Assembly: GCA_021805985.1 (NCBI GenBank)
Contig: JAJZDN010000011.1
Location: forward strand, 19,151 to 83,150
DNA from: Planctomycetota bacterium
GTDB taxonomy: Bacteria; Planctomycetota; Phycisphaerae; WQYP01
Direction: 5' to 3'
Length of the DNA: 64,000 bases
Below are positions 3,286-56,607 of this stretch, piece after piece. Each line of letters starts with the position of its first letter. The stretch's first letter is position 1. The translations under genes and the position numbers were made by a program. Below the pieces are notes generated by a model. It saw only the letters and a list, made by a program, of their open reading frames with translations, was not told the origin of the DNA and searched no databases.

Positions 3286-4610
3286 TACACCCGTATATGC
3301 CCATTGCCCGTGACAATAAATTTATACGTGCATAAATCTGCGGCGCCCATGGGGCCGCGGGCATGGAGTTTATCCGTGCTGATGCCGATTTCTGCGCCTA
3401 AACCATATTCAAATCCATCCGCCCAGCGGGTGGATGCATTGACCATGACACTGGCGGAGTCCACGTTCTGGATGAATTTATTGGCCGCGGCAATATCGCC
3501 GGTAACAATGGCATCGGTGTGTTGTGAACCGTATTGCGTGATATGGGCAATGGCTTCATCAATGGAATTTACCTGCTTGATGGCCACAATCAAATCCAGA
3601 TATTCGGCTCCCCAGTCTGATTCCACCGCCAGTTTGGCGTTTTGCAAAAGCCCCTGGCTGCGGGCATCGGCACGCATTTCCACTTTGGCTTCGCGAAATT
3701 TGGCAGCCAGACGCGGTAGAATGCGTGCGGAAATATCTTTATGAACAAGAATACATTCCGCGGTGTTGCACACAGCGCAGCCATCGACTTTAGCGCTTAC
3801 TGCGATCGCCACAGCCATGTCAGCATCTGCATATTTATCAATATAGATGTGACAGACGCCTTTATAATGTTTAATAACCGGAATGGTGGCTTGATCCACC
3901 ACCGCACGAATCAGCGATTCGCCGCCACGGGGAATCGCCAGGTCCACCAAGCCTTCCGCGGTCACCAGCACGCCCACGGCCGCTCGGTCGGCTGTGGCGA
4001 TCAACTGTACGGCATCCGGGTTTACCTGCGCGGCCACCAGCGATTCACGGATAATTTTGGCAATCGCCGTATTGCTGTGCAAAGATTCCTTACCGCCGCG
4101 CAGGATGCAGGCATTGCCGCTTTTCAGACACAGGGCCGCCGCATCGCTGGTGACATTGGGCCGGCTTTCATAAATAATGGCAATAACGCCAATGGGAACG
4201 CGGCGTTTTTCAATGCGCAGTCCATTAGGACGGTCATACGCTTCCATGGTTTGGCCGACGGGATCCGTTTGGCCCGCGATTTCACGGACGCTGGCGGCCA
4301 TGGCTTCGAGTTTCTTTTCAGATAAAGTCAGCCGGGAAATCATGGGCAACGCCAGATTGCTGTTTTTGGCCTCTCGCAGGTCGATCACATTGGCCGCCAG
4401 GACTTCGGCTTTGTGGGCAATAAGGCCATCGGCAATGCGGAGCAGAGCTGCGTTGCGAACATTCCCGCTCAACGTGGCGAGTTGGCGTGCCGCCTGCCGC
4501 GCCTGCCGGGCCATGTGCATTACTTCCTGAGTAACATCAGCCGAATCGACCATGGGCTTATTGGCCGACTGATTTTCAGCATTCCGTTCTGTGGCACTTT
4601 CCATCATCAT
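3285..4610 (-). CDS. proA: Gamma-glutamyl phosphate reductase
   Basis: VPIGVIAIIYESRPNVT, CLKSGNACILRGGKE, VDLAIPRGG, CNTAE, VNASTRWADG, EIGISTDKLHARGPMG. Exact start uncertain. Confidence 0.96.
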   Translation of the reverse strand: MMMESATERNAENQSANKPMVDSADVTQEVMHMARQARQAARQLATLSGNVRNAALLRIADGLIAHKAEVLAANVIDLREAKNSNLALPMISRLTLSEKKLEAMAASVREIAGQTDPVGQTMEAYDRPNGLRIEKRRVPIGVIAIIYESRPNVTSDAAALCLKSGNACILRGGKESLHSNTAIAKIIRESLVAAQVNPDAVQLIATADRAAVGVLVTAEGLVDLAIPRGGESLIRAVVDQATIPVIKHYKGVCHIYIDKYADADMAVAIAVSAKVDGCAVCNTAECILVHKDISARILPRLAAKFREAKVEMRADARSQGLLQNAKLAVESDWGAEYLDLIVAIKQVNSIDEAIAHITQYGSQHTDAIVTGDIAAANKFIQNVDSASVMVNASTRWADGFEYGLGAEIGISTDKLHARGPMGAADLCTYKFIVTGNGHIRV

Positions 4611-32649: not shown

Positions 32650-33163
32650 CACCGGATAAATAATCCGGCGGTTGATCCAGTACCGCCAACCAACCACCGG
32701 AATATCACCACGGTGCCCTATGCCACGATACGCCCCGGGAGCACCGGATGATTAATCCGGTGGTTGATCCAGTGCCGCCAACCAACCACCGGGCTATCAC
32801 CACAGTGCTCTATGCCACGAGACGCCCCGGGAGCACCGGATGATAATCCGGTGGTTGATCCAATGCCGCCAACCAATCACCGGGTTATCACCACGGTGCT
32901 CAATGCCACGAGACGCCCCGGGAGCACCGGATGATAATCCGGTGGTTGACCCAGTGCCCAACCAACCACCGGGCTATCACCAAGGTGCCCTATGCCGCGC
33001 CCCGGGAGCACCGGATGATTAATCCGGTGGTTGATGCAGTAACACCAACCAACCCCCGGTTTATCACCACAGTGCCCTATGCCGCGACGCTCCCCGATAG
33101 CACCGGATGATTAATCCGGCGGTTGATCCAGTGCCACCAACCAACCCCCGGGCTATCACCACG
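32650..33163. repeat. Tandem array of six ~92-bp palindrome-rich units
   Basis: Units start at 32650, 32742, 32834, 32925, 33009 and 33101 (last one partial). Consensus CACCGGATGATTAATCCGGTGGTTGATCCAGTGCCGCCAACCAACCACCGGGCTATCACCACGGTGCCCTATGCCACGAGACGCCCCGGGAG. Confidence 0.95.
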
Positions 33164-48020: not shown

Positions 48021-48094
48021 GCGCCCGTAGCTCAGTTGGATAGAGCGGTGGTTTCCTAAACTGCAGGTCACAGGTTCGATCCCTGTCGGGCGCA
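48021..48094 (+). tRNA. tRNA-Arg (CCT)
   Basis: GCGCCCG/CGGGCGC acceptor, GCTC/GAGC D stem, TTCCTAA loop, ACAGG-TTCGATC-CCTGT T arm. TATAAT at 47992. Confidence 0.95.
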
Positions 48095-48097
48095 TTG

Positions 48098-48402
48098 GGC
48101 CAAAGGCCCAATAGAGCAGGAGAATTTAGAACAGGTGAACAGGAGAGCAAATAAGGCTGGAACATAAGAGAGGCTGTCGCCGAGACGAGAAAACCGATCC
48201 TGCGGTCACCTGTTCACCTGATCCGCGCATCAGGCCAAAGGCCCGATAGAGCAGAGAATTTAGAGAGTTTAGCAGGAGAGCAAATAAGGCTGGAACAAAA
48301 GAGAGGCTGTGGCCGAGACGAGAAAACCCATCCTGCGGTCTACTACCCTACTCTCTACTGCTCAAGGCTCGATAGTGCAGAATCGGGCTGGCACCCGATT
48401 AG
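48098..48402. repeat. Tandem 135-bp repeat (2 copies plus partial third) directly after tRNA-Arg
   Basis: GGCCAAAGGCCC(A/G)ATAGAGCAG...GGAGAGCAAATAAGGCTGGAAC...GAGACGAGAAAACC..TCCTGCGGTC starting at 48098 and 48233. Confidence 0.9.
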
Positions 48403-48538
48403 GGGAAAGAGCTGTGCGGCTTACTACCGAGTTTGCAATCGACCCTTTAGCCGAAATAGAAGTGTCACCCCCAGTCCGGGATATACGGGGCAGCACGGAT
48501 TAATTACCGGAGCGAGGTTTTCTCAATATGGTACCTAA
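48401..48538 (+). pseudogene. Possible orphan toxin C-terminal tip remnant
   Basis: Start-less frame ...SCAAYYRVCNRPFSRNRSVTPSPGYTGQHGLITGARFSQYGT* whose last codons overlap the SMI1 gene start (ATG 48528, TAA 48536-48538). Confidence 0.35.
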
Positions 48539-48998
48539 CATTGAATCATTACTGGATCGCGTGCTGGCTATTCCAGAAATTGAACACGGTACCGGAGCGA
48601 CAGGCCATGAGATTGAAGAGGCTGAGCAATTGCTCTGTTTGAAAATTCCAGTGGACTATTGTGTTATGCTTCGTCGGGCCGGGTGGCTGGCAATCGGCCA
48701 TCAGGAATTCTGGGGACTTGGACCGGACGTGCCCAAGCATCTCCATCTGGTTCGCGCTACTCAATTGTGGCGGACAAACCAGTGGGTGGGGTTGCCGGGC
48801 CATCTGCTACCGATAAAAGAGGACGGCGGCGGAAATCTGTTTTGCCTGGATTGCTCGCACCCTGATCTGAACGAGCATCCTATCATTTTTCAGAGCCGTG
48901 ATGCAGAGCCTGCTAACCGCAGTAGTTTCTGGGCCGCAACGCTCTGTGAATTTGTCGAGGATTATGTCGACGAATTTCTGGCGGAAGAGTTACAGTAG
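48528..48998 (+). CDS. SMI1/KNR4 (SUKH) family immunity protein
   Basis: GATGHEIEEAEQLLCLKIPVDY..ML, EFWGLG, LLPIKEDGGGNLFCLD. Confidence 0.9.
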   Translation: MVPNIESLLDRVLAIPEIEHGTGATGHEIEEAEQLLCLKIPVDYCVMLRRAGWLAIGHQEFWGLGPDVPKHLHLVRATQLWRTNQWVGLPGHLLPIKEDGGGNLFCLDCSHPDLNEHPIIFQSRDAEPANRSSFWAATLCEFVEDYVDEFLAEELQ

Positions 48999-49025
48999 TA
49001 AAAGGCGAGGCTGGCCCTTCGGGAA

Positions 49026-49229
49026 GTGAAACTTGGCTGCGCCGGCTGGCCGTGGCAGGCGATGGTAAAGCGAAACTTGGAGTATACAATACATTCCGAA
49101 GGGCGACCCGTAGGCCCAACCGGAGGCCTAATAATGAAACAAGGACTTGCCTCCCCAGATTGCTTCATCAGTCGCAAACAACCGATTGGTCTGAATAAGG
49201 CCATGTATCCAGAGGCTTTTAACAAATGA
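49026..49229 (+). pseudogene. Possible orphan toxin tip / gene remnant
   Basis: Short ORF ending PIGLNKAMYPEAFNK with an ATGA stop/start overlap onto the next gene. Confidence 0.35.
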
Positions 49230-49624
49230 ACGCTAAAGAATTTATCCAGGGGGTGATCAAACACATGCGGTCAGGGACGGAAGGGGCGATCTCTTTTATA
49301 GGTTCTCCGCCCCCGGGCAGAAAACCTCTTCCGAAAGGGATGGAAATGCACAATTGGTACCGAGGCTTATCCAACATCGATAAGGAGATGGTGAACAAGC
49401 TAATCAATGAAGTGACCGAGGGAACTGTTTACGGGCTGCTGATGGTTCTCGATCACAAGATGTTCGTGGAGGGCTATGGCGAGAAGGGTGTGCTGGAACT
49501 GCACTATCGCGATCGTGATGGCAAGGCCGTCCGTCTGAATCCGCTTGGCGGAGAGAATGGGAAGGATTTGGAATATTATTTCAAGGAATTCCGTGATTCG
49601 GGAAGCAATATGGGGAATGGCTAG
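49226..49624 (+). CDS. Hypothetical protein, immunity-protein-like
   Basis: 132 aa, PPPGRKP...WYRGLS..DKEMV...GTVYGLLMVLD...LELHY..LN pattern. Island context. Confidence 0.7.
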   Translation: MNAKEFIQGVIKHMRSGTEGAISFIGSPPPGRKPLPKGMEMHNWYRGLSNIDKEMVNKLINEVTEGTVYGLLMVLDHKMFVEGYGEKGVLELHYRDRDGKAVRLNPLGGENGKDLEYYFKEFRDSGSNMGNG

Positions 49625-50068
49625 GTTGGCCTGTTGCAGAGCCTCACCGAGTTGGGAAGAATTAAGCCCCAATGGATCGCGGAACCTTGGAAAGGGTGAC
49701 GCCCGTCGATTCCGAACCCTACCGGGGCCGAAAGATAAGCCCGAAAGAGGCCGCCGCGGGCCTTTGGCGGCTGTTGGTTGACTGCGGCAAGCAGTTATCT
49801 GGTTGCGTCGGGTTTCGCTTCGTCAGCGAAAGTCGAAGCCAGCCCCTTGGCACCGAATCGCGGCCGCGCCGGACGATGGTAAACTTAAGCTCGGGGCGTA
49901 CAATATGCTCAATAAGGCGATCCATGTGGGCCAGACAGGGCGGTCTAAAATGATCCGCGTACCCGTTTCGCTTCGCCAAATCTGGAGCGGGCGGAGAGAA
50001 TGGGGAAGGTAGCGGCTGGCCATCTGTCCACGAGAATCCGAGAAAATCCAAAAGGGGTCCGTTGAGAT

Positions 50069-51301
50069 ATGCCAACTGAACTGGAAGAACTCAAACAGAT
50101 TTACGCTGAATTATCCGAGCTTGCCAAGTGCGGTGCCGGATTCCATGCGCAAATTGAAAAGTGGCCTCTGCTCTATAAGCGGAAGCCAGCGAGTGCGAGG
50201 CAGACTCATCAGCCCCCCGGCATAGTCGCGTACGCCGGCGCCCTTCTCTCAGATACGCTGCCCATCGCTGGCGAATTCGAACCCGACGGGCGGCCCTGGC
50301 TGGACGCCAACGGAAACCCAATCGTAAACAGCGTCGGAAGACCGTTTCGCATGATCCCGGGCTGGAAAGCATCGGTATGCTTGGTGGATGAGACAATAGG
50401 CCCATCGGCCGACGCCCAAGAAATTAGGAAAAAGATAACCGAGATGCTCAAAATGCTTGGGCGTTTCCTTCCCGCAGAGGCATCGTCAATGAAGTTGAGC
50501 GGCGATTCGGTGGGGCCTTGGCTGCTCCACTTGGCCCAGAAGTGTGCCTCCGGTGCCGCGGGTAAGCGGCACCAGACGCAGTGGGCGCAGTTCGGATGGA
50601 CAGACAACGGCTGCCTCGTGCAAGTGGTAGACGCTACCCCAGAGTGGCCACCTCCGGGAATTGCGCGTTCTCTTGGGGATCCGCCACCCCAGATGGTCGA
50701 GATCGCGGATGTCGCCGGTGCCAGTCGAGTTGTGCTATCCGAGTGGATCTCAGAGATGGAGTCGAGGCAGGGAAGCCAACTCCCGGAAGCTGGACCGATC
50801 GCCGACACCGCTACGCATAAGTTTGCTGTGGCATTCACCTTCCCCGGCGAGAAAAGGTCGTACGTGGAAAAAGTGGATAAGGCGCTTCAGATATTACTTG
50901 GGCCGGATCAGATATTTTACGACAAGCGTTACGAGCACGAATTGGCAAGGCTGGATTTGGACACCTACCTCCAATCGCTTTACCACGACCGGGCTGAGCT
51001 AATCGTGGTCTTCTTATGCAGCGAATATAATCGCAAGGACTGGTGCGGAATTGAGTGGCGGGCCGTTCGTGACATCATAAAGAAAAGGCAAGGGGATAGC
51101 GTTATGCCGTTTCGATTCGACAACGCTAATATTCCCGGGCTACTCTCAATTGATGGGTACATCGACGCCGCCGCCACCGCGACGGAGAAGGCCGCCGAGC
51201 TTATCCAGAAACGGCTTTTGGCTAACCGCCGTGCGTCCAGCGCCGCCGTTCCTAGTCGCGATACGCCGCCGGCCAACCTTGGCCCCGCAGCAGATTCGTA
51301 G
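50069..51301 (+). CDS. TIR-domain protein with uncharacterised N-terminal region
   Basis: C-terminal FAVAFTFPGEKRSYV...IFYDKRYE...LDTYLQSLY...LIVVFLCSEY.RKDWCGIEW...MPFRFDNANIPG, with the catalytic-position Glu in WCGIEW. Confidence 0.85.
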   Translation: MPTELEELKQIYAELSELAKCGAGFHAQIEKWPLLYKRKPASARQTHQPPGIVAYAGALLSDTLPIAGEFEPDGRPWLDANGNPIVNSVGRPFRMIPGWKASVCLVDETIGPSADAQEIRKKITEMLKMLGRFLPAEASSMKLSGDSVGPWLLHLAQKCASGAAGKRHQTQWAQFGWTDNGCLVQVVDATPEWPPPGIARSLGDPPPQMVEIADVAGASRVVLSEWISEMESRQGSQLPEAGPIADTATHKFAVAFTFPGEKRSYVEKVDKALQILLGPDQIFYDKRYEHELARLDLDTYLQSLYHDRAELIVVFLCSEYNRKDWCGIEWRAVRDIIKKRQGDSVMPFRFDNANIPGLLSIDGYIDAAATATEKAAELIQKRLLANRRASSAAVPSRDTPPANLGPAADS

Positions 51302-51399
51302 GCCGCCACGGAAGTGCTCGCGCTTCTGCGCCTGGAGCGGCAACTGGACCAGAGATTTATGACGCCCCGGGACCGGGCGTGTTGCAACTAGGAGCAACA

Positions 51400-51657
51400 A
51401 TGAGGCTGATCGAAATCATTCGGGATTTGGAACTCCTTGAGAACGAAGGCACTATTTGCGTGCTCAAACCTTGGACGGAAAATTCTCCGGCAGTTGTCGC
51501 AGTGAAGCCCGAGGCCGCAGACTCTGGGATGGAATACTTCATGGATGTTTTTATCGCTCGCGAATTCTTGGATGGCTGGGCCTCTAATCTCGACACGCAT
51601 CCAACCCTTGAGGAAAAATGTTTGAGATTAATCCAGTACGCAATTAATGACGCGTGA
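51400..51657 (+). CDS. Small acidic protein, DUF7716-like / putative immunity protein
   Basis: AGGAG RBS before ATG 51400. Contains MEYFMDVFIAREFL and ends LIQYAINDA. Confidence 0.6.
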   Translation: MRLIEIIRDLELLENEGTICVLKPWTENSPAVVAVKPEAADSGMEYFMDVFIAREFLDGWASNLDTHPTLEEKCLRLIQYAINDA

Positions 51658-51949
51658 GGGCGTCTGGTGCAAGAGCCCCGCAGAGTGTGCGTATTGCGGC
51701 GGCTTGGCGAGGTGAGCGGGTGTCGAATTTCATAATAATGGACGGCCTGGTGCACGCCCCGCAGTGCCGTGATATGGAACTAAGGCCGTATGTTGAACAA
51801 TATTCGCGGGCTGGCGTATCGGCGCGTATCTGCCGCCGGCGTGGCCGCAAATATGATTCATAGGCAGAGCAAATATAAAGGAAATCACGCGAGGTCGTGT
51901 GGGACGAACACTTTCACCAAAACGGCACGAAGGCAAAATGCCGTTGGCG

Positions 51950-52099
51950 TTGCGGCGGTGAATCTGTGGAATCTTGAAAATCTGTGGATGTTTACTGTTG
52001 ATGGATGCGCGGTTTAGTGTTGGCCAGCAGTGGGCGACGGCTTCGGGGTAGGCGAGGCATTCTTGTTCGGAGACGCGGCAGGCCAATATTTCCGCGGTA
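51950..52099 (-). pseudogene. Degenerate duplicate of the purN 3' end and its downstream flank
   Basis: Translates TAEILACRVSEQECLAYPEAVAHC versus purN TAEILAHRVFEQECIAYPEAIARC. The downstream AATCTGTGGA..GAAAATCTGTGGATGTTTAC is shared with 53271-53418. Confidence 0.88.
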
Positions 52100-52133
52100 G
52101 GGGATTTTGTAATTTAATTTAGTTATTTAAGGC

Positions 52134-52162
52134 TTGCATATACGTATCCCATGGGATACAAT
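52134..52162 (+). promoter_or_regulatory. TA promoter with operator palindrome
   Basis: TTGCAT-N17-TACAAT enclosing the perfect 16-bp palindrome GTATCCCATGGGATAC (52144-52159). Confidence 0.75.
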
Positions 52163-52167
52163 GGGGA

Positions 52168-52458
52168 GTGCCGGAGATACGCCAGACCGAGCAATATGAG
52201 CAATGGTTCGACGGCCTGCGTGACCGGCAGGCGAAGGCGCGCATCGACGTTCGTATCCGGCGGTTGTCGTTGGGTAATCCGAGCGATGCAAGGTCGGTTG
52301 GCCAGGGCGTATCGGAATTGCGGATTGAATACGGCCCCGGATACCGGGTGTACTTTACGCGGCGCGGCGAATGGGTCGTAATCCTACTTGTCGGCGGCGA
52401 TAAACGCACACAAGGGCGGGACATTAAGACGGCGATTGAACTGGCCCGCAATCTGTAG
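52168..52458 (+). CDS. Type II TA toxin, RelE/HigB-like (addiction module killer protein)
   Basis: WFDGLRDRQAKARI..RIRRLSLGN, VSELRIEYGPGYRVYF, LLVGGDKRTQ.RDI. Confidence 0.92.
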   Translation: MPEIRQTEQYEQWFDGLRDRQAKARIDVRIRRLSLGNPSDARSVGQGVSELRIEYGPGYRVYFTRRGEWVVILLVGGDKRTQGRDIKTAIELARNL

Positions 52459-52467
52459 GAGATTACC

Positions 52468-52749
52468 ATGGCAAAAACTAAAACCCGTCGCTGGGACGCG
52501 GCCGATCATCTTAAAACCAACGCTGATATGACCGCTTATCTGGAAGCGGCGCTGCAGGATGGCGACGCGACCGTCATTACCGCGGCGCTGGGCGATATTG
52601 CCCGCGCTAAGGGTATGACGCGCATTGCACGCAGCGCGGGCTTGGGGCGGGAGAGTTTATACAAGGCGCTTTCACCGGACGGGCGACCGGAATTCGCAAC
52701 GGTATTGAAGGTGGTTCGGGCGTTAGGACTAACGCTCCACGCGGCATAG
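52468..52749 (+). CDS. Type II TA antitoxin, HTH (addiction module antidote protein)
   Basis: YLEAALQDGD...AALGDIARAKGMT.IARSAGLGRESLYKALSPDGRPEFATV. Confidence 0.92.
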   Translation: MAKTKTRRWDAADHLKTNADMTAYLEAALQDGDATVITAALGDIARAKGMTRIARSAGLGRESLYKALSPDGRPEFATVLKVVRALGLTLHAA

Positions 52750-52829
52750 GGCTTAATCTTCAGCCAACCCATGCGGCCTTAACGCCTTGGGGTCGGCCAC
52801 GCCGATCAGGCCGTGTTTGGTGCGGCACA

Positions 52830-52913
52830 CATCTGTATTGGCCGGCCCTTGATGTGGATTTGTCGCTGGATCAAATTCAGCACCCGGAACAATTTCCACT
52901 GATTGCGAAGTAG
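52830..52913 (+). pseudogene. DUF2442-like C-terminal remnant
   Basis: Manual translation HLYWPALDVDLSLDQIQHPEQFPLIAK*, matching the DUF2442 C-terminal pattern as recalled. No start or N-terminus. Confidence 0.55.
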
Positions 52914-53086
52914 ATTGCCAAAAGACCGCGGATCACGCGGATAAACGCCGGGCTTCACAAAAGCCCCAAATCTGGAATTTGAAATCACACAGTTCGCGAT
53001 ATTTAAGGCGTGAGAATGGAACGTAAATAGTGGACCGCAGGCCGGCGTTCTTGTCTGGGCGACAGCCACCCTTTTGCGCCAGCCGA

Positions 53087-53183
53087 ATTTGCTCTACTGC
53101 TCAACTCTCTCGTGTCACCTGCTCTAATCGGGCCGCAGCCCGATTCGCTCTACTGTTCAACTCTCTAAATCCTCTGCTGCTCT
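53087..53183. repeat. Inverted copy of the repeat family found after tRNA-Arg
   Basis: The reverse complement contains AGAGCAG..ATTTAGAGAGTT...AGAGCAAAT and GAATCGGGCTG...CCCGATTAG, as at 48250-48290 and 48380-48402. Confidence 0.75.
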
Positions 53184-53331
53184 GTCGGCGGTTCTCTCCC
53201 GTTGCTATCGTAAATAAAATAATCGCCGTGGGCTTTTTAGCGGCGGGAAGCTACGGTGTGCTGCGCGATCTTGCGGCGAATCTGTGGAATTCCGAAAATC
53301 TGTGGATGTTTACCGCCAACGGCTACGCCCT

Positions 53332-53934
53332 TCACTGGTGGGCTATGCAGCGGGCGATTGCTTCGGGATAGGCGATGCATTCTTGTTCAAACACGCGATG
53401 GGCCAGTATTTCTGCGGTGTCACCGGGTAGAACGGGGCAGGTGCGTTGAAGAAGAATTGGGCCGTGGTCGTACTGATTATCGGCGTAATGCACAGTGCAG
53501 CCGGAGATGGTTTCGCCGGCGTCAATGACCGCCTGATGCACCTTTAGGCCGTGCATGCCGCGGCCGCCGTATTTCGGCAACAGGGCGGGGTGGATATTCA
53601 GGACGCGGTTTTCAAATGTCGGCGGAATGGGCAGCAGCGATAAAAAGCCGGCCATGATGACTAAATCCACCTGGTGTTTGCCAATCGCTGTGAAGACCGC
53701 ATCGGAAAATGCGAAGGCGTCGGTAAAACTGCGGCGCGAAATGACTTCATGCGGCAAGCCCAGTTTTTCGGCCCGGACCAGGCCGTAGACCTCGGGCCGG
53801 CTGGAAATCACACAGGCAATAGAAGCGGATAATTTCCCATCCGCAATTGAACTAGCCAGATTTTCCAACGTGGTACCGGAACCTGAAATCAGAATTGCCA
53901 ATCGCCTGGCAGGTGGTGTGTGTTGTTGCTTCAT
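53332..53934 (-). CDS. purN: Phosphoribosylglycinamide formyltransferase
   Basis: ILISGSGTTL, VIMAGFL, LNIHPALLP, SGCTVH, YDHGPILLQ. Confidence 0.97.
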   Translation of the reverse strand: MKQQHTPPARRLAILISGSGTTLENLASSIADGKLSASIACVISSRPEVYGLVRAEKLGLPHEVISRRSFTDAFAFSDAVFTAIGKHQVDLVIMAGFLSLLPIPPTFENRVLNIHPALLPKYGGRGMHGLKVHQAVIDAGETISGCTVHYADNQYDHGPILLQRTCPVLPGDTAEILAHRVFEQECIAYPEAIARCIAHQ

Positions 53935-55217
53935 GTTGCCGTGTTCGCGTCCTGTTTAATGTTTACTTCGCTGGCCGCAGCCCCCAAGCCTTTTGCCCGG
54001 CGTGCCATTACGGCCATCACGCCGCCGCCGATGGTCAAAATAACAAACATGGTGATGGCTTTGGGCGTGACCGAATCTGGTGATCCCGAGATCGCCGCCA
54101 CGCCCGGCCCCAGCACCGTACCGATGCCGATCAGGCTTTCGTGAATTCCTGCGTTGGCACCTGATCCCTGGCTAAGGTGCATGGCATAATAAAGCGATCC
54201 GGAGTAAAGCATGGCAACCGCAACGCCAAAAATCGCTTCAGATAATATCAGCATAAATACCGATTGACTTAACAGCAGGGCCACTGTTCCCAGCATCAAT
54301 GCCGCAAAAGAAATCATCATCCAGTGCACCCGATAATGCCAGCCCGTCCAGAAGCTGGTAAGTAAAAAACCGCCGATGCGGGTTAAGGCCCACACCGACG
54401 CCAAGGCCGTGGCCAAGGCATAGGATTTTATTCCCAGGGCGATGGTAATGGTGGGCAAGACGGCCACAACCGTATTGGCCGCCACATAAGAAAGCATGTT
54501 GGAAAGCCACGCCATGTGCAACAATGTTTTGGATTTTGGCGAAGCGAGAATCGCCTGGCTGCGGGCCAGTTCTTCCGGGGAATCTTCAACATGGCCGGCA
54601 TGAATTTGCGATTGCGGAACAGAAAACAGAGCAATAATGATCCAGACCATCAGGCTGATAATCGCGGCGATAATAAAAACCGCGGCCCAGGAAAGCCACA
54701 AGGCCAGCGAACCCACGATGGCGCCGGCGATAAAGCCGGTGGTGGACCAGTTGATATTATAGATTGTGATGCGTTTGGTTAAACGTAATTTTCCTGATAC
54801 ACACGTCAGGGCAGATTCAACGGCGGGCCACAGCGGGGCGGTGAAAAAATTGAGCATCAGCAGAAAAATAAACACGCCCCCCAAGCTGCGCTGCACCACC
54901 GCCAATGTTCCAAACGCACATACGGGAATACATATCAACGCCATGTAACTTCCCAGACGGCGTTGCCCCAGCCGATCCACCATGCGGCCGCCGTAAAATG
55001 CTCCTATCGTATAGACCAGTCCCCCGGCGGCAACCATACCGAGTTGCACTTCCGCCGGTTGATGCAATTCATACGCGGCAAAGAAAAAAACCGCATTGGA
55101 AGTTAAGGATGTCATAAACGACGCCAGCCAATGGGCGATGTACCACGGCAGCAGCGGCGAGCGCCAATACATCGCTCTGGGACGGGTGGACGTTGATGAA
55201 ACTGGAATCTGGCTCAC
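53931..55217 (-). CDS. MFS transporter
   Basis: About 12 TM segments, GRMVDRLGQRR motif A. Confidence 0.85.
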   Translation of the reverse strand: MSQIPVSSTSTRPRAMYWRSPLLPWYIAHWLASFMTSLTSNAVFFFAAYELHQPAEVQLGMVAAGGLVYTIGAFYGGRMVDRLGQRRLGSYMALICIPVCAFGTLAVVQRSLGGVFIFLLMLNFFTAPLWPAVESALTCVSGKLRLTKRITIYNINWSTTGFIAGAIVGSLALWLSWAAVFIIAAIISLMVWIIIALFSVPQSQIHAGHVEDSPEELARSQAILASPKSKTLLHMAWLSNMLSYVAANTVVAVLPTITIALGIKSYALATALASVWALTRIGGFLLTSFWTGWHYRVHWMMISFAALMLGTVALLLSQSVFMLILSEAIFGVAVAMLYSGSLYYAMHLSQGSGANAGIHESLIGIGTVLGPGVAAISGSPDSVTPKAITMFVILTIGGGVMAVMARRAKGLGAAASEVNIKQDANTAT

Positions 55218-56533
55218 GGAAAAATACCCCGCTGCTTATAAGCGCGTGTCACATGTTCCACCGCTACACAAAAAGCTGCCGTGGAAAGGTCTGTATCATA
55301 TTGATGCGCGGCCAGGCGCACCCGCCGTGCCGCCAGAACAATGGTTTGTTGCAGTTCACGGTCCACCCGGCTGAGGTCCCAATGCACGCCGGCCTTGTTC
55401 TGCACCCATTCCAGGTAACTCACCGTTACCCCGCCGGCATTGCACAATATTGCCGGCAACAGCGCAATGCCGCGCTGCCGCAGAACTTGCGCCCCCGCGG
55501 GCGTCACCGGGCCATTACCCCCTTCGGCCAGCACCCGGGCGTTGAGCCACTGGGCTTCGGGTGCATCAATCATGCGTTCCAGCGCCGCGGGGATAAACAC
55601 ATCCACTTCCGTGCGGTAAAACGCTTCCCGATCAATAATCTCCACGCCTGAAGCGGTGAAGCCCGCCAAGCCTCCGGTCTGTTGCACGTGCTGTTGTAAC
55701 TCCGTTATCGGCAGGCCTTGGATATTGCGCAGTGCACACGTATGATCCATCACTGAAATCAGCTTGGCACCATGTACGCCAAGCGCTTGCGCGGTGTTAC
55801 TGCCGACATTGCCAAAGCCCAGAATGCCCAGCCGCAGGCCAGCCGGTTTCAGGCGAAATTCCGGCAGCAATTCCAGCAGCACATAACAAAGTCCCTGCCC
55901 GGTGGCCTTTTCGCGCCCTTCACTGCCGCCGCAGCCGACGGATTTCCCGGTTACCACATTGAGCATCCCCTGCTGGCGGCCTTCCTGATGGGTGTTGAGA
56001 TACGTATCCATCATCCAGTCCATAATCTGGGCATTGGTTCCCACATCGGGAGCAGGGATATCAATTTCCGGGCCGATGTTCCCGCCCAGTGCGGAAGTAA
56101 ACCGACGGGTCATGCGCATGAGTTCACTTGGTGAAAGTTGTCGAGGGTCCACTTTAATTCCCCCCTTGGCCCCGCCGAAAGGCAGCCGCATGACCGCACA
56201 CTTCATGGTCATCCAGACCGACAATGCCTTGACATCATCAAGACTCACATCCGGATGGTAACGTATGCCGCCCTTATACGGCCCCAAGATATTGTTATGC
56301 TGAATTCGGTAGCCCTTGAACAGGCGATAACGCCCGTCATCCATCATCACCGGGAAATGAACCATCAATTCATTTTTCGGTTGCGATACGATAGCTTTTA
56401 CAAAATCAGGGGCTTGAATAACTCCGCAGGCATCGTTAACCGACTCCACGGCCATGGCAAAAAGCGAATCCGGATCTGTCGGCTCCAATGCTTGCGCATG
56501 TGGCAGTGGCGTTGAAATGTTCTGCATAGGCAT
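55214..56533 (-). CDS. gdhA: Glutamate dehydrogenase (Glu/Leu/Phe/Val family)
   Basis: GYRIQHNN.LGPYKGGIRY, MTMKCA..LPFGGAKGG, DIPAPDVGT, VTGK, ATGQG, GFGNVG, ILCNAGGVTVSYLEWVQN. Confidence 0.93.
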   Translation of the reverse strand: MPMQNISTPLPHAQALEPTDPDSLFAMAVESVNDACGVIQAPDFVKAIVSQPKNELMVHFPVMMDDGRYRLFKGYRIQHNNILGPYKGGIRYHPDVSLDDVKALSVWMTMKCAVMRLPFGGAKGGIKVDPRQLSPSELMRMTRRFTSALGGNIGPEIDIPAPDVGTNAQIMDWMMDTYLNTHQEGRQQGMLNVVTGKSVGCGGSEGREKATGQGLCYVLLELLPEFRLKPAGLRLGILGFGNVGSNTAQALGVHGAKLISVMDHTCALRNIQGLPITELQQHVQQTGGLAGFTASGVEIIDREAFYRTEVDVFIPAALERMIDAPEAQWLNARVLAEGGNGPVTPAGAQVLRQRGIALLPAILCNAGGVTVSYLEWVQNKAGVHWDLSRVDRELQQTIVLAARRVRLAAHQYDTDLSTAAFCVAVEHVTRAYKQRGIFP

Positions 56534-56607
56534 AACTTATCTCCGTCGGGCAAAGGCGCCTTGAATCAGCGACGCAACATCATACCCGTGAAGGGTCCGC
56601 TGTGGCT

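Follow-up and report, generated by a model that had tools for sequence, protein, structure and literature searches.

Introduction

Among the described systems that come closest to the locus reported here are the orphan immunity genes, and the arrays of toxin tips and immunity genes, of polymorphic toxin loci of the Rhs, contact-dependent inhibition (CDI) and type VI secretion system (T6SS) types (PMC10539506, PMC12247911). We analysed a 64-kb stretch of DNA (contig JAJZDN010000011.1; hereafter, the window) of an uncultured Phycisphaerales (Planctomycetota) bacterium, in which a 4.7-kb islet lies beside the gene purN, at 48.1-52.8 kb; searches of the organism's own genome were confined to this window. 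The islet resembles the Rhs, CDI and T6SS arrays in having immunity genes without a full toxin, a short remnant of a toxin 3' end, a start-stop overlap, variation between strains and a presumed protection against non-kin. Unlike them, it has no rhs, cdiA or secretion gene nearby, and its immunity genes are interleaved with a TIR-domain gene and a toxin-antitoxin (TA) pair. To our knowledge, such toxin systems have not been studied in Phycisphaerales planctomycetes, and an islet of this kind has not been described in the phylum.

A second group for comparison is formed by the acquired interbacterial defence (AID) and recombinase-associated AID (rAID) clusters of Bacteroidales, mentioned in PMC10470768. 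With these the islet has in common stand-alone arrays of orphan immunity genes, toxin remnants, horizontal acquisition and sharing between co-resident lineages. AID clusters are carried on mobile elements or lie beside a tyrosine recombinase, and they have conserved intergenic repeats; the islet, unlike them, lacks a recombinase, and the similarity between its modules is at chance level. As in defence islands, a TIR protein, a HigBA pair and a DUF2442 remnant are clustered at a variable site, and homologues of the TIR gene lie by GmrSD and a type IIG-like methylase, but the TIR protein of the islet matches no named system and its N-terminal domain is almost unique. Finally, the insertion of a cassette together with a long target duplication derived from another allele has been reported for restriction-modification (R-M) gene complexes. 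The purN side of the islet is similar in that a working 3' end and a diverged, displaced copy of it bracket cargo, and it differs in that the cargo consists of a TA pair and native downstream DNA and in that the duplication ends at a conserved motif.

We consider it likely that the islet is a strain-specific locus that defends its carrier against neighbouring bacteria and probably against phages, and that it was built piecemeal from orphan immunity genes, a TIR gene and a TA pair. A preliminary description of the sequence had proposed a stand-alone depot for immunity and defence, and the core of the proposal is borne out by two Rhs-linked immunity families and one toxin stub, with no toxin in the window; nor is there any sign of an attack function within the islet. 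The locus is thus of a known kind, that of orphan immunity arrays and defence islets, found here in a little-studied phylum.

Immunity genes and the toxin stub

The gene at 49226-49624 (+ strand) encodes a 132-aa protein that has about a dozen relatives, one of them (P0102) 81% identical, and that weakly matches DUF6547 (E 0.035). Its homologues were found in two distinct contexts (L088-L091 and L092-L093, six contigs), and in both they lie directly 3' of Rhs/YD toxin genes, with an ATGA overlap. The neighbouring toxins carry the end of an Rhs/YD core (...YYSPTLGRFISEDP...DPTGL or ...YYANARYYSPTLGRFISEDP...DPTGL), with the motif PxxxxDPxGL, followed by a variable C-terminal region. The toxins of both contexts then share a tip of about 100 aa (...DDLSIHHVGQGHP...LNTAMYQGAFDK, then stop), and their C-termini read ...LIDLNTAMYQGAFDK in L088 and ...LINMNRTMYPGAFGR in L092, each followed by the stop codon. 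By its conserved gene neighbourhood, the 132-aa gene belongs to a predicted immunity family of Rhs toxins, namely those whose C-terminal toxin region has the motif IHHxGQGHP.

The tip family itself (...DDLSIHHVGQGHP...AMYxGAFxK, then stop; L088 6526-8004, L092 3-1463) had no match in Pfam at E values up to 10. The IHH motif of the L088 and L092 tips hints at a nuclease of the HNH/EndoVII type.

Directly ahead of the 132-aa gene, at 49170-49229 (+ strand), lie the last 20 codons of an Rhs/YD tip (...SRKQPIGLNKAMYPEAFNK, then stop). Of the 60 nt of this segment, 49 agree with the 3' end of the toxin gene in L088, as against 31 of the 90 nt that precede it, for which reason we regard the segment as a genuine toxin stub; blastn homology likewise begins at 49169. 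A 31-aa open reading frame (ORF; 49134-49229) with its own GGAGG ribosome-binding site encloses the stub and overlaps the 132-aa gene by ATGA. The stub corresponds to the second of two start-less fragments that had been described as toxin tips, the one overlapping an immunity-like gene, and that assignment stands, although the fragment is short. The 132-aa gene is an orphan at this locus, since only 60 nt of a toxin 3' end are left and the window holds no toxin homologue. A full toxin gene with an immunity gene 81% identical to that of the islet is present in L091, which was assembled from the same sample as the islet contig L004, so that the matching weapon is present in the community.

The second immunity gene (51400-51657, + strand) encodes 85 aa from an ATG; an alternative GTG at 51379 gives 92 aa. 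All of its relatives, about 30, are 90-96 aa long. Three homologues (P0114, P0123 and P0131) lie directly 3' of WHH/Colicin-DNase toxin genes, in three of three contexts (L094, L096 and L098). The toxins ahead of them show Colicin-DNase and WHH matches in L094, YD-shell, Colicin-DNase and WHH matches in L096, and DUF6443 and WHH matches in the 1267-aa protein of L098. Judged by this arrangement, the 85-aa gene belongs to a family encoded directly after WHH/colicin-DNase Rhs tips and is, at this locus, a putative orphan immunity gene for tips of that type. The preliminary description had called its product DUF7716-like. The protein of the window has no Pfam match, and 10 of 29 family members weakly match DUF7716 (PF24832; best E 6.8e-4); the label was a fair guess because of these ten weak matches, and it stands as a distant likeness only, one in which the Pfam gathering score is not reached. 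A structure model of the 85-aa protein has a predicted local distance difference test score (pLDDT) of 87.7, and Foldseek found no fold match for it in PDB (best E 0.34). A WHH stub ahead of the 85-aa gene was considered and rejected, as the match covers 29 aa only (E 0.77) and has the wrong spacing.

The preliminary description would have been contradicted by small ORFs without homology to toxin or immunity families; instead, both the 132-aa and the 85-aa families follow Rhs toxin tips.

The third gene (48528-48998, + strand) encodes a 156-aa protein of the SUKH / SMI1-KNR4 superfamily, immunity-type, with no toxin beside it. It exceeds the Pfam cutoffs of three models: SUKH_5 (43.1 bits, cutoff 27, E 4.7e-11), SMI1_KNR4 (41 bits, cutoff 25.4, E 3.4e-10) and SUKH_6 (37.9 bits, cutoff 27, E 3e-9), with a model coverage of 16-140 of 142, in agreement with the SMI1/KNR4 label given to it earlier. 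Neither a metagenome scan nor tblastn against plasmids returned close relatives. The fragment ahead of it (48403-48538, + strand, within a start-less frame at 48155-48538) had been taken for the first toxin tip and yields no evidence of one: the frame passes mostly through a repeat cluster, no family is matched at E values up to 5 in Pfam, and no start codon in it opens a frame of at least 30 aa.

These genes could also be what is left of the bacterium's own weapon, a full rhs gene with tip-immunity modules of which the core and the tips were later deleted. The toxin 3' stub still attached to the 132-aa gene would fit such a decayed Rhs locus, as would the presence of the same immunity families in true Rhs arrays in L096 and L098. 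However, the three immunity genes are not contiguous, being split by the TIR gene and by long spacers, and their GC content varies from 0.48 to 0.52. The WHH-immunity module interrupts the tail of the TIR gene and thus arrived later than that gene. The 64-kb window shows no trace of YD repeats and holds no Rhs or toxin gene and no toxin homologue, as the preliminary description had said of full toxin genes, and none of the relatives has an Rhs gene after purN. We therefore regard the decay of a resident Rhs locus as unlikely.

The TIR-domain gene

Between the immunity genes, at 50069-51301 (+ strand), lies a gene for a 410-aa protein that ends at a premature TAG and whose TIR domain, recognised earlier, scores above the cutoff of TIR_2 (31 bits, cutoff 28, E 3.9e-7). 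An N-terminal domain of 270 aa is followed by a C-terminal TIR domain with a WCGxE motif. The N-terminus MPTELEEL... and the entire 270-aa domain are common to five full-length relatives, and the full-length homologues P0002-P0005 are 51-66% identical to the protein; among 1.84 billion proteins, the N-terminal domain is represented by only 2 representative clusters. In 38 aligned sequences, W81 and E85 of the WCGxE motif are invariant, and C82 and G83 are nearly so; the invariant glutamate of the TIR WxxxE motif is what we take to be the catalytic residue.

Homologues of the TIR gene adjoin GmrSD (L085) and an Eco57I/MmeI-type methylase (L087), and an anti-phage role fits this neighbourhood. 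No partner gene (e.g. ThsA) is conserved in L085-L087, and the protein was assigned neither to Thoeris nor to another named TIR system. Neither the single sequence of the TIR domain nor a profile of it matched any PDB sequence.

The TAG at 51299-51301 aligns with CAA in L085, and homology to the C-terminal tail continues in frame past it (AATEVLALLRLERQ...), as a dead remainder at 51302-51363 (+ strand, by alignment with L085), to about 51363. It stops 27 nt before the start of the WHH-immunity module at 51391. Since TAG replaces CAA and the homology ends by the module, we conclude that the TIR gene was truncated and that the WHH-immunity module was set into its tail. The lost tail is 130 aa long and is carried by P0002 and P0004. 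P0005 naturally ends just past the TIR domain, so the truncated protein of the islet may still work.

The tails of this family are interchangeable: the 130-aa tail is common to P0002 and P0004, an unrelated one of about 105 aa is found in P0003, and P0005 lacks a tail. No clear family match was found for any of them.

The higBA pair and the DUF2442 remnant

To the right, at 52168-52749 (+ strand), is a type II TA pair, composed of a HigB/RelE-type toxin (52168-52458) and a helix-turn-helix antitoxin (52468-52749). Both TIGR models exceed their cutoffs (HigB, TIGR02683, 130.5 bits, cutoff 62.85, E 2.3e-38; HigA, TIGR02684, 124.8 bits, cutoff 53.7, E 1.2e-36), and the Pfam matches are Gp49 and dnstrm_HI1420. 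The toxin gene comes first, with 9 nt between the genes, as in pairs of the HI1419/HI1420 type; the RelE/HigB pair seen in the earlier reading is thus confirmed. A candidate promoter, read from the sequence as TTGCAT-17-TACAAT (52133-52161, + strand), precedes higB and may drive the pair. It overlaps a perfect 16-nt palindrome, GTATCCCATGGGATAC, found by self-blast at 52144-52159, which is likely the higBA operator. A promoter-like motif upstream of two modules (GATGGTAAA...TACAAT) was rejected, as a consensus scan missed it and it is at chance level.

In Logan contigs of two runs (X3 and X4), a minority variant was observed in which most of higB (52204-52458) is replaced by AA and higA alone is left.

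The remnant of a DUF2442 gene, consisting of its last 29 codons and the stop (52824-52913, + strand; DUF2442 E 0.0012), had also been recognised, correctly. It is 92% identical at the nucleotide level to L005, in which the 86-aa gene is intact (DUF2442 E 1.8e-13). Its junction with the islet lies between 52822 and 52823. From 52823 leftwards, two other alleles, present in all four metagenomes, continue with ...EQIFAVELYH, that is, with an intact DUF2442, and all Logan contigs of the islet end at 52853.

In the spacer beside the remnant, one X2 contig has 183 extra letters between 52933 and 52949.

The premature stop of the TIR gene, the reduction of DUF2442 to 29 codons and of a toxin tip to 20, the higB-deleted variant in two runs and an internal deletion in the 85-aa gene could together suggest a graveyard of broken accessory genes without a current role. 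We find this very improbable. Six reading frames are intact and span their family models nearly end to end, the immunity genes retain ribosome-binding sites and ATGA coupling, and the islet is 100% identical in contigs of at least six separate assemblies, so it is not an assembly accident either.

Composition and boundaries of the islet

The left neighbour of the islet is a tRNA-Arg(CCT) gene (48021-48094, + strand; ARAGORN; Rfam 62.9 bits), the sole match in an Rfam scan of the region. All recognisable genes between it and purN are on the + strand, as the preliminary description stated. The same text proposed that the array grew by repeated small insertions, and such piecemeal growth is supported by discrete edges, the cut tail of the TIR gene, the cut DUF2442 gene, a displaced purN end and mixed GC content. 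Homology edges found by blastn are sharp, with one set per module: 49169-49615, 50069-51363 and 51391-51662. The comparison of GC content with the flanks, suggested earlier as a check, gave heterogeneous values for the islet genes, 0.48-0.60 against 0.539 ± 0.013 for 29 core genes, and tetranucleotide distance is highest over 47.5-52.5 kb.

Next to the tRNA gene, at 48090-48402 (+ strand; TRF and self-blast), are two tandem hairpin-bearing units of 133 nt and a further hairpin, which belong to a family resembling repetitive extragenic palindromic (REP) elements. The tandem pair covers 48090-48345 (TRF period 133, 1.9 copies, 89% matches; self-blast E 3e-39), and it sets in with the final 5 nt of the tRNA gene; each unit opens with GCGCA and a GGGCC-AAA-GGCCC hairpin. 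Inverted copies of the family lie on the purN side (53028-53183, - strand; 78% over 108 nt, E 2e-16, and 84% over 43 nt), and no other copies were found in the 64-kb window. Logan contigs of the repeat reach 5-10 times the depth of the islet, many differing sequences adjoin its edge at 53058, and copies also follow purN in the relatives L005 and L007. The repeats are best read as a dispersed, multi-copy, probably REP-like family and not as ends of the islet. The degenerate repeats that had been thought to separate the modules did not hold up: the segments 49048-49091 and 49862-49905 are 73% identical over 44 nt with E 0.31, which is chance level. A 92-nt tandem array elsewhere in the window (32650-33163, 5.7 copies, 86% matches) is unrelated to the islet.

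Neither the scanned frames nor the genes called between 43.3 and 60.3 kb contain a recognisable integrase domain, in agreement with the preliminary description. The locus does not qualify as an integron or as a cluster of attC sites lacking integron-integrases (CALIN), having no integrase and, as the sole similarity between modules, the 44-nt pair just mentioned, no formal attC model having been run. Nor does it qualify as a tRNA-integrated island, as there is no integrase and only 5 nt of the tRNA (GCGCA) are repeated, within the tandem repeat family.

The displaced purN end

Working purN (53332-53934, - strand; Formyl_trans_N 2.6e-45) together with its 3' end and the motif GTAAACATCCACAGATTTTC..ATTCCACAGATT just past the stop codon occupies 53273-53934. 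A displaced, degenerate copy of its 3' end, detected by self-blast at 51955-52098 (- strand), comprises 144 nt, the last 87 nt of the coding sequence and the downstream motif. This copy has 77% identity with 53273-53418 (E 3e-27), and tblastn aligns it to residues 173-196 of PurN at 79%. With the purN 3' end of L007 it shares 91% identity, which makes it an L007-type allele. The cargo is bracketed by a working end and a diverged displaced copy, as in a long target duplication at the 3' end of a gene. The DNA between the copies consists of higBA and of the spacer, repeats and DUF2442 native to the region downstream of purN in L005 and L007.

Just past the purN stop codon, a motif, AATCTGTGGAAT...GAAAATCTGTGGATGTTTAC (53279-53313 and 51961-51995), is conserved in L005-L008 and in both copies of the window. 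Its two TCCACAGATT half-sites resemble DnaA boxes. In L005, the stop codon of purN is separated from the motif by an insert that fits exactly between them, and in L011 a 462-aa ORF about 1 kb after purN has an N-terminus that looks DnaA-like by eye.

Such an arrangement might be left by an integrative element that targeted tRNA-Arg or purN, arrived once and lost its integrase, in which case the purN duplication would represent attL and attR. The 144-nt direct repeat does resemble the usual surrogate gene end, and the duplication stops at the conserved motif, in which there are two TCCACAGATT half-sites; an insert occupies the position between stop codon and motif in L005. Against this, neither an integrase nor a remnant of one is found in any frame, the repetition of the tRNA is limited to 5 nt, and each module has its own homology edges and a differing GC content. 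An integrase-borne element is moreover not the simplest reading because the DNA between the copies includes the native downstream region of purN in L005 and L007. A single arrival of this sort thus seems quite unlikely to us. An exchange with the allele of a relative, homologous on the purN side and illegitimate between 52098 and 52099, would fit the arrangement better.

Joints in the reads, 51996>53320 and 53276>51954, were considered as junctions of an excised or circular higBA and rejected, as the contigs are only 90-93% alike and the joints are gone at 93%. They match what is expected of the mosaic purN end of an L007-like relative. A further joint, 48292>51956, could mark an empty site, with sides of only 28-34 nt that lie inside a repeat.

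Distribution among relatives

The region is contained in runs of mine-drainage metagenomes, and the closest relatives by PurN are all metagenome-assembled genomes labelled Phycisphaerales or Planctomycetota. Identical gene content in relatives would have spoken against the preliminary description. Seven relatives, with PurN 77-92% identical, keep the order GDH-MFS-purN, and none of the six islet genes follows purN in any of them. Core genes directly follow purN in L009-L011; in L007, the motif and the repeats alone separate purN from a gene for an AMP-binding enzyme. In L005, the region after purN (3399-4449) contains a 238-aa gene and an 80-aa HicB-like antitoxin without a visible HicA partner, in addition to the intact DUF2442, and the contigs of L006 and L008 extend no more than 410 nt beyond purN. 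Since the relatives differ after purN and lack the islet genes, the purN side is a variable site in the closest clade. Neither a tRNA-Arg nor an AsmA-like gene was found near purN in the relatives, which gave no support for the tRNA half of the hotspot proposed earlier.

Two further sequences, L002 (ENA) and L003 (GCA_027428595.1), were compared with the window over 49338-56547. From about 49.3 kb to 54399 they show one difference (52886), and past 54399, inside the MFS gene, they diverge at about 20 sites per 100 nt. This pattern reflects either a recent transfer or recombination of the islet and purN between two lineages, or a switch of strain by the assembler.

Proposed function and origin

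In the model that we favour, the SUKH, 132-aa and 85-aa proteins would protect against Rhs-type toxins delivered by mine-drainage neighbours, by binding their C-terminal toxin domains and neutralising them, and one of the toxin types targeted would be a WHH-type nuclease. The TIR protein may consume NAD in anti-phage defence or abortive infection, with its N-terminal domain as the sensor. HigBA would be an addiction module, perhaps also holding the islet in place. The modules were probably acquired at the variable site behind purN through recombinational exchange with DNA of related strains, without an integrase encoded by the islet. We infer the protection, the NADase activity and the route of recombination from sequence.

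Several observations weigh against this model. The SUKH gene appears to be linked to toxins by family membership alone, and the 85-aa gene has, in the alignment with its homologues, an internal deletion of 7 aa. As to the TIR protein, PADLOC returned no match for it or for its neighbours, its AlphaFold model is poor (pLDDT 49.5), and without the 130-aa tail the protein may be inactive. The empty site and the tRNA side were not recovered in relatives, a metagenome scan for the C-terminus of the AsmA-like protein giving no match. Matching toxins may also lie elsewhere in the genome, in which case the term "orphan" would be wrong.

A broader mechanism can be put forward only tentatively, as a minor possibility. 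Phycisphaerae might capture cassettes without an integrase, with core genes offering their 3' ends as landing sites. At this locus the site would be purN, with its conserved TCCACAGATT-repeat motif and the flanking REP-like repeats. Cargo-bearing alleles of related strains would be brought in by recombination that is homologous on one side and illegitimate on the other, leaving displaced ends behind. The observation that bears on such capture is a tract of more than 5 kb, comprising the islet and purN, that is identical in a second lineage with a flank only about 80% identical.

Conclusions

Orphan immunity genes in variable defence islets are already well described in other phyla. The present analysis gives a likely role, toxin immunity, to two unannotated protein families, and it draws attention to an Rhs tip (IHHxGQGHP...AMYxGAFxK) and to a TIR N-terminal domain that no library covers. 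For the biology of the organism, the islet suggests that Planctomycetota of acid mines take part in Rhs-type contact warfare, in which they would stockpile antidotes beside anti-phage genes.

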